Program-made: the position numbers and the translations under genes | The notes under the pieces: model-generated | What the model was told of the DNA's origin: nothing | The model's database searches: none | What the model saw: only the letters and a program-made list of their open reading frames with translations | Shown: positions 11,545 to 17,893 of the stretch, piece after piece | How the letters are laid out: each line of letters begins with the position of its first letter | How positions within the stretch are numbered: position 1 is the first letter of the stretch | Sequence record: ON470621.1 | Length of the DNA: 17,893 nt | Reading direction: 5' to 3' (one strand) | Source of the DNA: Escherichia phage vB_EcoS-716R1

Positions 11545-12026
11545 CAGTCTCTCGCTTTTAAAAGCTCTGCCAGCGGATCAACATCATCCGGTCCGGCGGT
11601 ATTTACTTTCGCCCGGCTTGCCGGTGACATACCAAACTCTGCAAGCATCGCCCGAATCCGCTTCCAGGCATCAGCCTTCATCGCAGCAGCCGGGTGTGCC
11701 TTGATCAGCACATCGCCATTCTGCGTTTCCGTGCGGTAGGTATAACCCTCAACATCGAGTATTTCGCAGTGATGCCGGTATTCGGTGTAGGCTTCCACCA
11801 GTAACTCGAGCGCACGTGCATCGAGCTGAGAAATGATCCCTTCCGCATTCAGCTCTTCCGCCATTCGCCTGAACCAGTACTTCCCCTGCGCCCCTAAATG
11901 TTGCGGAATTTTAGGGAGACCTTTTTCATCCTTTTTAGCGGTTTTTTTGGAGTCTTTAACTGGCCGCTTTGAGGGGTTACCTCGTATCAAATGCAGGCGT
12001 GGCGGGGTTTTCGGGGGTCCAGACAT
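11544..12026 (-). CDS. Terminase small subunit (P27 family)
   Basis: 160 aa with a basic N-terminus (PPKTPPRLHLIRGNPSKRP), placed directly upstream of and coupled to the large subunit. Confidence 0.8.
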   Translation of the reverse strand: MSGPPKTPPRLHLIRGNPSKRPVKDSKKTAKKDEKGLPKIPQHLGAQGKYWFRRMAEELNAEGIISQLDARALELLVEAYTEYRHHCEILDVEGYTYRTETQNGDVLIKAHPAAAMKADAWKRIRAMLAEFGMSPASRAKVNTAGPDDVDPLAELLKARD

Positions 12027-12173
12027 AATCGATTTTACCTATCAATCATTTAATCACATTCCAAAAAAAAGTTTTCGAACCTGCGGCGATGCGAGGAAAG
12101 GTCAGGCGGCGGTACTGAGCAGCCAGGGTTGCAGAGATTTGACCTGCCCCTCCCCTACAGATGGGAACTGTTA

Positions 12174-12524
12174 TCAATTGAGGCGTTCGCGCGCTGTTTT
12201 TGCTTTATGACAGGGCCAGCACAGACTCTGCAGGTTACTGTCTGCATCCGTGCCACCATGAGCTTTCGGAATGATGTGGTCCACAGTTCTGGCTTCAACG
12301 GCTCTCCCATTGCGCAGGCAGTTCTGACACAGATGATTATCACGCTTCAGTATGCGCGCACGTATGGCATCCCATTTCGAGCCATAGCCACGCTGGTGGC
12401 GGCTCAGTCCGCGTTGATGCTGTACCCATCCTTCGCCACGATGTTTATCGCAGTAACCAGAACTGTCTGTGGTTGTACCTGCACATCCACGCTTACGGCA
12501 GGCGCGTGGGATTCGTGGGGGCAT
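12174..12524 (-). CDS. HNH endonuclease
   Basis: Cys/His-rich with an HNH-like core (DHIIPKAHGGTDADSNLQSLCWPCHKAK). Start set at the ATG at 12524, which follows a GGAG; the track ORF begins further upstream at 12623. Confidence 0.8.
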   Translation of the reverse strand: MPPRIPRACRKRGCAGTTTDSSGYCDKHRGEGWVQHQRGLSRHQRGYGSKWDAIRARILKRDNHLCQNCLRNGRAVEARTVDHIIPKAHGGTDADSNLQSLCWPCHKAKTARERLN

Positions 12525-15000: not shown

Positions 15001-15307
15001 ACCCCGTCTCCCGTTATCCGGAAGCTGACAACAATAAAAAAGCCACCAGTTAACTACTGATGGCTCTGATAACTCATGCAAGCGTCTCAGACGATCCACT
15101 GACACTACCGGTGAGTTTAACGATACCTTCCATTTGACTGGCTCACTTTTTATGATGATGCCGGTGTATTTATCTCCAGCACCAGACTTTCTATCTCAAC
15201 GCCATACGTTGCATTTTTGGTAATATCCGTCAGCGTCAGTGCATTTAGTCCCACTGCCAGACCGTCTTTTATGGTCTGGAATGCCGGGCCAGTACGATGA
15301 CGTAGTA

Positions 15308-15756: not shown

Positions 15757-16092
15757 ATGAAGTGGATTGTAATTGATACAGTTATCCAGCCATCATGCGG
15801 AATATCTTTTTCAGTCATATGGAGTAAAGTAAAATTAATAATCTGGTATCAATCGGATGCTTTCTTACCTCCTGAAAGTATATTTACACTGACTCACACA
15901 GGTATCATGCTCAATAACAAAGTGCTACCTGTAACCATTTACAACGTAGTACCATTCAATAAAACATTCTGGAATTTAATCAAAAACAGCCAGGAATGCC
16001 CTACAAATACAGATAACGTATTGAATGAATGCTTTAATAACCGTTGCATTCTGCAAATATGTCCTTATGGACTAAAACAACAAAGTCCATAA
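15757..16092 (+). CDS. Hypothetical protein (111 aa) in a low-GC island, opposite strand to the late operon
   Basis: AAGGAAG Shine-Dalgarno 5 nt before the ATG. A 111-codon open frame in very AT-rich DNA is unlikely by chance because stop codons are AT-rich. Cys-containing C-terminus ([16 protein letters not shown]); no recognisable family. Confidence 0.45.
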
Positions 16093-16109: not shown

Positions 16110-16320
16110 GACAAAATCAATATAAACAGCCCCTCCGGAGAGGGGCTGGAGAGTGGCGCTATGTGCCATTGCATGGTGCCGGGTGCCTCCCGGTGAATTC
16201 AGTACCAGCACCTGAATCCGCGATTATCCCATATACCTACTCGCTGATTACCCCTCCGCACAGGGGGATTCACCATGCGAAATTTTTTAACAAACTTCCC
16301 GCCGGCCAGACAATAATCGC
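16110..16320 (-). repeat. Copy 1 of a ~200-bp structured repeat unit (candidate sRNA gene with promoter-like box and intrinsic terminator)
   Basis: Shares with copy 2 the blocks GCATGGTGAATCCCCCT, ATTCAG...CTGAAT stem, ACCGGGAGGC.CC.GGCACCATGC, and an identical hairpin AGCCCCTCTCCGGAGGGGCT followed by a T-rich run (minus sense). Upstream conserved TTGTCTGG...TTTGTTAAAAA box. Confidence 0.6.
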
Positions 16321-16584
16321 CAGCCTGAATTATGAGCAACGTGGCATTTTACGGGAAAACTGTTTTCTGCAGTAAAAAGGCCCGCCGGAGCGAGCCTGGA
16401 AGGATAGCGGTCATGTGATGCCGGTTTCCCGGTAACTCAGCATCGGTATCTGAGTCAACGTTTTCTCTACTGGGTCATTTCCGATACGTTCCGCCTTCCG
16501 GCAGACTTTCATCACGTCAGAAAATATAGCACCCTGAGTAACAGGACAGTACTCAGAATTCAGGAAACTGTGACACATCCTGCA

Positions 16585-16790
16585 CAGAAAAGCCCCTCCG
16601 GAGAGGGGCTGAAGTATAGCCTAATTTCTGTCTGTCGCATGGTGCCAGGGGCCTCCCGGTAAATTCAGCCTGTCTACTGAATTTGCATGTTCTCTGGATC
16701 ATACACTTTGCCAGATGCCCCGCCGCTGAGGGGGATTCACCATGCGATGTAATTTTTAACAAATTCTCCGGCAGCCAGACAATCATCAAG
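16585..16790 (-). repeat. Copy 2 of the same structured repeat unit
   Basis: Same conserved blocks and the identical 20-nt hairpin as copy 1. The internal region diverges with indels, while the ATTCAG/CTGAAT stem is kept with a different loop. Confidence 0.6.
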
Positions 16791-16967
16791 CTGTGGAATT
16801 GTGAGGTATTTAAAAATTTCAACGGGTAACTGATACCCTGCTAATCGCCTGATGCTTTCTTTTTCAGCAACGGGAAAGCAACAACCACACACCCGCCACC
16901 AAAACACCATCAGACAGCACCGACATTATCCGGCTGCTGAAGTCCACCATCACCACCAGAAACAACA

Positions 16968-17025
16968 GGAGTGCAACCACAGCTGCTTAGAAGGCAATTG
17001 CTCTGCCCGGCTGAGCTAACAACGC
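16968..17025 (-). other. Degenerate tRNA-Arg(UCU)-like remnant (D-arm and anticodon arm only)
   Basis: Minus sense TTAGCTCAGCCGGGCAGAGCAATTGCCTTCTAAGCAGC resembles the 5' half of an argU-type tRNA (GCTC/GAGC D-stem, CTTCTAA anticodon loop). No T-arm and no complementary acceptor 3' strand follow. Confidence 0.3.
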
Positions 17026-17125
17026 TGAATACCGATAATGGACCGCCATCGGGGACCCGCCCCCGCACCAACAACCCTGTTATCGTGTCGTCTGCTCTTC
17101 CTGATAAGCTAATGGCGGTTTGTGA

Positions 17126-17201
17126 TGGTGGCCCTTGCTGGATTTGAACCAGCGACCTGGCGATTATGAGTCGCTCGCTCTCACCACTGAGCTAAAGGGC
17201 C
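17126..17201 (-). tRNA. tRNA with CAU anticodon, most like the minor isoleucine tRNA (ileX/ileZ type)
   Basis: Minus sense GGCCCTTTAGCTCAGTGGTGAGAGCGAGCGACTCATAATCGCCAGGTCGCTGGTTCAAATCCAGCAAGGGCCACCA folds as a cloverleaf (7-bp acceptor GGCCCTT/AAGGGCC, GCTC/GAGC D-stem, GCTGG/CCAGC T-stem, encoded CCA). Overall similarity is to E. coli ileX rather than to a Met tRNA, judged from memory. Confidence 0.8.
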
Positions 17202-17237
17202 GGGAGTAGAATAATAACGGTCCGTAATTAATTCCGC

Positions 17238-17262
17238 AATAAAAAACCCGCTCGGCGGCGGG
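17238..17262 (-). terminator. tR'-like intrinsic terminator downstream of the late promoter
   Basis: Minus sense CCCGC-CGCCGA-GCGGG followed by TTTTTTATTG, about 50-70 nt downstream of the pR'-like promoter. Confidence 0.6.
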
Positions 17263-17311
17263 TTGTAGAAACTCTTCTAACGTCAGGCATAAAAAGCCCA
17301 TTATTATGACG

Positions 17312-17339
17312 AATTTACCACAGATTCCGGAAAAATCAA
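17312..17339 (-). promoter_or_regulatory. pR'-like late promoter (Q-dependent late transcription start region)
   Basis: Minus sense TTGATT, 16-nt spacer, TAAATT, immediately downstream of the Q stop codon. Lambda pR' has the same TAAATT -10 hexamer and the same placement. Confidence 0.6.
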
Positions 17340-17344
17340 CCTTG

Positions 17345-17893
17345 TTACCTAGTTACCTTTTTTAACTGCCGCTCAGCCCATGCTTCTTCAATATCAAACC
17401 GGGTCACCAGCGCATCATAGAATTTCTTAACTGTTTTTTCCCATGACGCGCGTGTTATCTGGTTTGTCACCTCGCATATAGCATTAAATGTCTCCGTTGA
17501 TGGTAGTCTTTCATAGCCACGACCACCACAACGCTGGCAGTCTCTGATAACAGGCATACCACGTTTTACCGACTCTTCACGATGAATGGCGACACCACGC
17601 CCACGGCAATCCTTACAGGCGGTGGAAACCTCACCCTTTCCGCCACACTCCGGACAGGCAACTTTTACCACCTCCCTGACTTTTTTCCATTCTTCCCAGT
17701 AAGACGAATACACACCTTTCGTACACTTTGCCCATACCGGCGGCTTACCATCCGGATACTGGACCTTGTTTGTAAAAACTACGCTTTCAATAAATTTTTC
17801 CCCATAGCAACAAGGGCACTGCTTTTTACTCGCTGCGCTGCGGGCATAATCCTCAAAAGCGTACGAATGCGTATTTTCATGAAAGGAGATCAC
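17345..17893 (-). CDS. Q: Late antiterminator Q (lambda Q family); 5' end beyond the window
   Basis: The C-terminal two thirds align with lambda Q (YAFEDYARSAAS, zinc-finger cysteines CPECGGKG...CKDCRGRG...CQRCGGRGYERLP, WEKTVKKFYDALV, ending KVTR). The ORF is open to the window edge at 17893, so the N-terminus is missing. Confidence 0.85.
   Translation of the reverse strand: MISFHENTHSYAFEDYARSAASKKQCPCCYGEKFIESVVFTNKVQYPDGKPPVWAKCTKGVYSSYWEEWKKVREVVKVACPECGGKGEVSTACKDCRGRGVAIHREESVKRGMPVIRDCQRCGGRGYERLPSTETFNAICEVTNQITRASWEKTVKKFYDALVTRFDIEEAWAERQLKKVTR

Follow-up and report, generated by a model that had tools for sequence, protein, structure and literature searches.

A probable lambda-type late-gene control cassette with a tRNA-Ile2 module just behind it in Escherichia phage vB_EcoS-716R1

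How is late transcription governed in a phage in which the antiterminator gene Q is followed directly by a promoter-like sequence, a terminator and a tRNA gene? The question is raised by Escherichia phage vB_EcoS-716R1, of which a stretch of 17,893 nucleotides (sequence record ON470621.1; the window in the following) was analysed as a whole. An earlier note on this DNA had proposed a TTGATT/TAAATT promoter right after the Q stop codon, a strong intrinsic terminator shortly downstream, an overall arrangement of the lambda pR'/tR' kind and a tRNA resembling the minor isoleucine tRNA, and at the level of sequence these proposals have held up. What the region contains is very probably the cassette by which a lambda-like E. 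coli prophage of the Q-lambda family controls its late genes, and a tRNA module has been inserted directly after it. Every feature in question is encoded on the minus strand, and Table 1 gives the coordinates. The reading is built on homology of sequence, on register and conservation, and on the identity elements of the tRNA, from which we infer the start site, pausing, Q binding, the efficiency of termination, and the expression and modification of the tRNA. The arrangement is of the textbook lambda type, the tRNA is a named gene, and nothing departs from an already known kind; beyond correct annotation, the finding matters little.

The stop codon of Q, TAA, occupies 17347-17345. The fragment present in the window matches PF03589, the family designation of Q-lambda, with an E-value of 1e-30, and the full-length copy in identical records, a protein of 273 residues with two PF03589 stretches, does so with 1.2e-54; the label in ON470607.1 and in RefSeq is "antitermination protein Q". 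Residues 83-182 of the fragment align with residues 108-207 of lambda Q (PDB 7UBM, 4MO1; E about 1e-15), such that the C-terminal domains of the two proteins are homologous, and phmmer comparisons with PDB 7UBJ, 4MO1 and 7UBM gave E-values from 6e-16 to 1.4e-15. By sequence, the window Q is a member of the Q-lambda family, in which the Q cassette consists of the Q gene, PR', the sigma-dependent pause element, a terminator and the late genes (PMC9388147). The corresponding late genes of the window, namely holin, YdfR, lysozyme, Rz, terminase, portal, capsid and tail genes, lie downstream on the minus strand, between positions 15105 and 1.

Between Q and these genes, the promoter region can be laid alongside lambda pR' (NC_001416), which reads TTGACT-17-TAAATT-tgactc-AACGATGGG, the window reading TTGATT-16-TAAATT-cgtcat-AATAATGGG. 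The -10 hexamer is identical to that of lambda, and so is the 6-nt gap that leads to a -10-like hexamer followed by GGG. The spacer, a stretch also given as TTCCGGAA, ends in TGg and provides an extended -10 TG at 17320-17319. Transcription is predicted to begin with the A in position 17305, inside the range 17300-17310 in which the earlier note had placed it. In lambda, the Q binding element (QBE) is located between -35 and -10 (PMC9388147). Inside the Q clade of the window the spacer is nearly constant, TTTCC[G/C]GAATCTGTGG, and other clades differ; this clade-wise conservation fits a clade-specific recognition by the cognate Q.

The element that appears, from its sequence, to be the decisive and most diagnostic one of the promoter region is absent from the earlier note. 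It is a sigma70-dependent pause element, composed of the -10-like hexamer AATAAT at predicted positions +1 to +6 and a discriminator-like GGG triplet, and a pause is predicted at about +16/+17, that is, at 17290/17289. In lambda the hexamer AACGAT spans +1 to +6 and is re-bound by sigma70, the polymerase pauses at +16, the pause is needed by Q, and the GGG that follows is discriminator-like (PMC4005639). A single copy of the composite motif TANNNT-N6-AAYRATGGG is present in the window, whereas shuffled sequences lead one to expect 0.01. For a wider comparison, Q relatives sharing 40-98% identity were gathered from 16 genomes and joined by two phage relatives and, in addition, Salmonella phage F1055, lambda and K-12 Qin; the aligned loci belong to E. 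coli, E. albertii, Salmonella phage F1055, Kosakonia, Mangrovibacter, Buttiauxella, K-12 Qin and lambda. With the pause element as anchor, 18 Q loci align with no gap from the -35 hexamer to the GGG, down to a Q identity of about 40%. The -35 column reads TTGAYT or TTGCNN (TTGACT in lambda), AACGATGGG is constant in 15 of the 18 loci, and a terminator consisting of hairpin and T run lies within about 25-60 nt of the pause element in all of them bar lambda, whose own terminator lies much further downstream.

The cassette is widespread. At least 120 viral contigs carrying the promoter of the window's clade keep the composite motif in register, and of 5426 complete E. coli genomes, 1238 contain the interval from the 3' end of Q through ileZ at a coverage of at least 80%. 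Near-identical DNA is found in Escherichia phage vB_EcoS-733R4 and relatives, and in mEp460 the part of the query that aligns, 417 of 501 bases, is 99.3% identical. In K-12 itself, the cryptic Qin prophage (ydfT/quuQ) encodes a Q of the same family with about 40% identity, behind which TTTGCA-17-TAAAAT-6-AACGATGGGC is followed by a terminator about 35 nt later; Qin differs from the window in its Q clade and spacer, lacks the tRNA module and carries cold-shock gene cargo instead. TANNNT-N6-AAYRATGGG together with a terminator can serve as a simple locator of PF03589-type Q late promoters across the Enterobacteriaceae.

Within the matches listed, 120 contigs allow the pause hexamer itself to be compared: AACGAT is present in 102, AATGAT in 10, AACAAT in 4 and AATAAT in 4. 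Variation is confined to +3 and +4, where the search pattern admitted Y and R only, and all four transition combinations occur; 15 of the 18 non-AACGAT alleles accompany the tRNA-carrying version of the cassette. With respect to the consensus TATAAT, AACGAT of lambda scores 3/6 and AATAAT of the window 5/6. The natural alleles AACGAT, AATGAT, AACAAT and AATAAT represent a ready series for relating the strength of the sigma-dependent pause to Q loading.

The terminator is a hairpin, AACCCGC/cgccga/GCGGGTT, at 17264-17245, with a stem of 7 bp (5 G-C) and a loop of 6 nt, followed by a T run to 17241; its fold has a free energy of -11.2 kcal/mol and a z-score of -2.4. Substitutions in stem and loop among relatives preserve the hairpin, and among the 120 related contigs of the matches listed, 116 have a T run whose end falls at +64 to +66. 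The terminated RNA is predicted to comprise about 65-68 nt, from 17305 to 17241-17238. As in lambda, an intrinsic terminator stands ahead of the lysis and structural genes, which share its strand; unlike lambda, where it stands far downstream, the window places it such that an RNA of about 66 nt results, and the tRNA module follows it.

The earlier note had compared this short transcript with the regulatory RNA of the Shiga toxin (Stx) phages. StxS of Stx1 and Stx2a phages is a real entity, a transcript of 258 nt from pR' to tR' that RNase E cuts to 74 nt (PMC7547250), and in principle it is alike, a short constitutive transcript of an antiterminated late promoter that ends at tR'. It stems, however, from a different Q/pR' type and is 258 nt long as compared with about 66 nt, and the likeness turns out to be one of position only. 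In blastn-short comparisons, the interval from Q to ileZ of Sakai Sp5 shares one terminator-like 24-nt match (21/24) with the window, and neither the body of StxS nor its 3' 74 nt match the window RNA, so that homology with StxS was rejected. The Sp5 match belongs to a hairpin with T run (AACCCGCCGATGCGCGGGTTTTTTT; L012 1066-1096) a few tens of nucleotides past Q, which is 21/24 identical to the window tR' though StxS reportedly runs through it for 258 nt. In Rfam, the segment 17238-17305 reached no family at the gathering score; at a permissive threshold the single overlapping match, to Trp_leader (25.7 bits, gathering 41), is most likely due to chance. An open reading frame (ORF) of 45 codons at 17164-17301 on the minus strand starts in the pause element, crosses the terminator and the tRNA, and was judged spurious.

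The tRNA carries a CAU anticodon. It is 100% identical to ileZ of Stx2a_1447, 92.1% to K-12 ileY and 89.5% to ileX, as compared with 67.5% to metT/metU. The acceptor stem reads GGCCCUU/AAGGGCC, as in ileX and ileY, the methionine tRNAs metT and metU having GGCUACG/CGUAGCC. C4:G69 and C5:G68 in the window tRNA correspond to U4:A69 and A5:U68 in tRNA-Met, and precisely C4:G69 and C5:G68 are major identity elements of E. coli TilS (PMC11947777). Furthermore, RefSeq labels identical copies tRNA-Ile. Judged by these sequence features, the CAU tRNA is tRNA-Ile2 (ileZ), as the earlier note had suspected, and not the elongator tRNA-Met type that it had named as the alternative outcome. Rfam matches to Plastid-ycf2 and SNORD103 on the plus strand are mirror images of the tRNA and were discarded.

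Similarity to the tRNA clusters of Stx phages and phiP27 sets in at 17241, at the end of the T run, and stops at 16984. Behind ileZ, an argN-like region retains recognisable acceptor, D and T arms, but its anticodon arm has been replaced and its T loop mutated; it was called neither by ARAGORN nor by Rfam (17039-17119), and its fold resembles a cloverleaf whose "anticodon" loop has 3 nt. The adjacent argO is cut just past the anticodon loop, at a place where a close relative has an intact tRNA-Arg(TCT). With argN degenerate and argO cut off, the module holds one working tRNA only, and the plural of the earlier note, which had tRNAs supplying rare codons for late and cargo genes, does not apply. 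As to the codons, the 21 late genes (4564 codons) contain AUA at 7.0 per 1000, or 14% of Ile codons, AGA at 6.6 and AGG at 5.0; in six small lysis-proximal genes AUA rises to 16 per 1000. E. coli K-12 averages are roughly 4-5 for AUA, 2 for AGA and 1-1.5 for AGG per 1000. Measured against these averages, the AUA enrichment in the late genes is modest.

Along these lines, the following course of events can be envisaged. RNA polymerase with sigma70 would start from TTGATT-16-TAAATT at about 17305, whereupon sigma70 region 2 would re-bind AATAAT (with GGG) at +1 to +6 and the polymerase would pause at about +16/+17. In the absence of Q, escape would be slow, and transcription would end 40-65 nt further on, where hairpin and U tract are reached, with release of the RNA of about 66 nt; the genes for lysis, head and tail, which follow downstream on the minus strand, would thereby stay off. 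Q made from the early operon would bind the DNA of the -35/-10 spacer and load onto the paused complex; the Q-loaded polymerase would then resist tR' as well as the terminators at 16610, 16397 and 16148, and the whole late operon would be read. A mobile tRNA module with a weak promoter of its own would begin at the end of the terminator U tract, and C34 of the ileZ product would be converted to lysidine by host TilS, such that it reads AUA and the gene amounts to a third copy of the scarce AUA decoder.

Several observations weigh against the cassette reading. The -35 and -10 hexamers match the sigma70 consensus at just 8 of 12 positions, and a generic promoter scan of the window did not list TTGATT/TAAATT, nor were promoter-like sites in excess (2 found, 2.5 expected); the promoter call can therefore not rest on the hexamers alone, and conservation was used as evidence instead. 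The spacer has 16 nt instead of the 17 nt of lambda and is without similarity to the lambda QBE, the Q site being placed by position only. The Q of 273 residues, with two PF03589 stretches in tandem and extra CxxCxGxG zinc motifs, is unlike the 207-residue lambda Q, and we know of no study of it. The rare AATAAT allele could strengthen pausing or arrest rather than act as wild type; a consensus substitution in lambda led to stronger sigma binding and to more pausing and arrest (PMC4005639). The tRNA shows an A27/C43 mismatch where ileX and ileY carry G27-U43, the AUA enrichment is small, and AGA and AGG are more enriched though the Arg tRNAs of the module are defunct. Finally, a literature search found no experimental mapping of the promoter of the window's Q clade. 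In this context one should consider the view that the hairpin is a mere terminator of the early (pR/Q) operon, that TTGATT/TAAATT is a chance match, and that the late genes are driven from elsewhere. A terminator may indeed stand at any gene end, and the weak hexamers and the outcome of the generic scan would suit such a view; yet -35, -10, the 6-nt gap and AAYRATGGG keep their register at 18 loci with very different flanks, among them lambda, where each element was defined experimentally (PMC4005639), and on the late strand between 16000 and 17893 no alternative promoter-like site was found at the scan threshold. The promoter call stands above chance because the composite motif is both rare by chance and conserved in register, and a chance origin is very improbable. 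Hardly credible is the assignment of the CAU tRNA to elongator tRNA-Met, as given by ARAGORN and by phage GenBank records (tRNA-Met-CAT in ON470607.1 and ON470612.1): these labels rest on the anticodon alone, against which stand the much closer identity to ileY and ileZ, the TilS pairs and the RefSeq label of identical copies. "tRNA-Met" in the deposited phage records should become tRNA-Ile2 (ileZ).

Two further questions concern what the cassette, if it is read in the lambda manner, produces without Q. The earlier note had everything from the tRNA onwards depend on readthrough of tR', and this would be the case if TTGCGG-17-TATTAT, between tR' and the tRNA, were inactive. Its -35 hexamer is weak (3/6) and overlaps the U tract of tR', and in an Entomohabitans locus a tRNA-Arg stands directly behind tR' with no obvious promoter. 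On the other hand, the 40 nt upstream accompany ileZ wherever the module occurs, be it behind the methylase gene of Stx phages or behind the tR' of the window, and TATTAT never varies; in Sakai Sp5, differential RNA sequencing (dRNA-seq) located a primary start between tR' and stx2AB that is assigned to the tRNAs and appears to drive them (PMC7547250). In view of the conserved upstream element and the Sp5 start site, lysogens probably express ileZ from its own promoter, with no need of Q, and full dependence on Q is somewhat unlikely. The short RNA, in turn, might be more than a by-product, namely a trans-acting, probably Hfq-binding small regulatory RNA (sRNA), constitutive in lysogens like StxS, which would add to the cassette reading. 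StxS sets a precedent, and its authors suggest that other antiterminated late promoters, too, yield functional short RNAs (PMC7547250). The layout is sRNA-like, with a U-rich single-stranded 5' part, small hairpins, and a terminator with U tail; the 5' 30 nt are kept across Q clades with only about 40% protein identity, and in Salmonella phage F1055 the RNA itself matches at 81% identity while the flanks have diverged. Against this, there is no resemblance to StxS beyond the terminator-like hairpin and no Rfam family at the gathering score, the fold of the whole RNA is ordinary (z-score -1.5), and the conserved 5' stretch corresponds to the pause element together with about 20 bp past the pause, already known to act in Q-dependent escape at the DNA level (PMC4005639). 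On account of this overlap, a function at the DNA level explains the conservation sufficiently. HnrS, a terminator-ended prophage sRNA of likewise 66 nt, is associated with the late genes of Sakai Sp9, Sp10 and Sp12 (PMC13502914); Sp9, the one of the three that was compared, has a Q of the Q21 family (PF06530/DUF1133), the window RNA is absent from Sp9, and a link between the two RNAs was rejected. All in all, a regulatory role in trans is quite unlikely, and a long shot is the combined proposal that the RNA of about 66 nt works as an sRNA like StxS, with the AATAAT allele tuning both its amount and the Q dependence of the late genes. If true, about a quarter of all complete E. coli genomes would harbour a cassette that releases a constitutive sRNA, and K-12 Qin would contain a cousin of it.

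Table 1. Coordinates of the features of the late-gene control cassette and the adjoining tRNA module, in positions of the window.
Feature	Position	Strand	Remarks
Antiterminator Q gene, 3' part	17345..17893	minus	182 codons and stop; N-terminus cut off by the window
-35 hexamer TTGATT of pR'-like promoter	17334..17339	minus	sequence read; begins 6 nt past the Q stop
Spacer TTTCCGGAATCTGTGG, 16 nt	17318..17333	minus	candidate Q binding element by position
-10 hexamer TAAATT	17312..17317	minus	same as lambda pR' -10
Putative sigma70-dependent pause element AATAATGGG	17297..17305	minus	6 nt after the -10, in register with lambda AACGATGGG
tR'-like intrinsic terminator	17238..17264	minus	terminator scan; hairpin, then T run, A, TT to 17238
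Candidate tRNA-module promoter	17211..17239	minus	TTGCGG (17239-17234)-17-TATTAT (17216-17211); C-rich 9-nt leader to the tRNA
tRNA-Ile2 gene ileZ, CAU anticodon, encoded CCA, 76 nt	17126..17201	minus	ARAGORN; Rfam tRNA, 72.5 bits, E 1.6e-15
Degenerate argN-like pseudo-tRNA	17039..17119	minus	alignment with argN of Stx2a_1447 and with phiP27
argO 5' half (tRNA-Arg UCU)	16984..17025	minus	identity to argO of phiP27 and Stx2 phages ends at 16984

The tRNA module invites comparison with the ileZ-argN-argO cluster of the Stx phages (933W/Sakai Sp5 type; ileZ-argO in phiP27). The ileZ genes are 100% identical, identity over the module including the 40 nt upstream amounts to about 87-92%, and in either case the module follows the late promoter region and stands ahead of the cargo and lysis genes. 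It abuts tR' in the window, whereas in Sp5 tR' and ileZ are about 160 nt apart, with what is left of a methylase gene in between, and phiP27, Stx2a_1447 and Sp9 possess a complete methylase gene ahead of ileZ. The argN of phiP27 is degenerate, as in the window. Unlike the Stx-phage cluster, the window has an argO truncated at the anticodon loop, its remainder replaced by a cargo block of a small DUF3927 ORF and STnc100, and no stx genes. Among the 120 contigs of the matches listed, the CAU tRNA follows tR' in 36, and another module sets out from the same junction in 84. The sharing of one junction by alternative modules marks the site after tR' as a boundary of cargo swapping, at which tRNAs, methylase, small ORFs and STnc100 are exchanged.

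A few observations from the neighbourhood and from related prophages may be added. In Sakai Sp9, past the Q21-family Q gene ECs_1778, a promoter-like region is followed by a strong terminator (GCCACCGGAAGGTGGTTTTTTT; L150 15392-15520); HnrS may conceivably be the pR'-tR' RNA of Sp9. Within the late region of the window, a full-length match to STnc100 (RF02076) scores 138 bits (gathering 47) at 16582-16775 on the minus strand, and a second, weak copy scores 30 bits at 16371-16546 on the same strand. Both copies end in near-identical terminators, at 16610-16591 and 16397-16378, and a third similar one is found at 16148-16127. A 2026 preprint ties STnc100 and PasD to PF03589 Q genes (10.64898/2026.05.13.724894). 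Antisense to the STnc100-like copies, TTAACA-16-GACAAT occurs twice on the plus strand, at 16287-16314 and 16756-16783; the two promoter-like sites are identical and 469 nt apart, a sign that the entire sRNA unit is present as a direct repeat.

The hydrophobic DUF3927 ORF (38 residues, 16864-16980, minus strand, E 5.8e-11) starts just past the end of the argO similarity at 16984 and is annotated by RefSeq in identical copies. On the opposite strand, within the cargo of the late operon, lies an IraM-like anti-adapter gene (15757-16092, plus), in which 5 of 13 Ile codons are AUA. Compared with ON470607.1, the window shows a length difference of 9 bp in 12026-12174, between the genes of the terminase small subunit and an HNH endonuclease. 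The head maturation protease is distributed over two ORFs, 7822-8238 and 8256-8420 on the minus strand, and is represented by two coding sequences in ON470607.1 as well; the split could reflect a frameshift or be the sign of a defective prophage.

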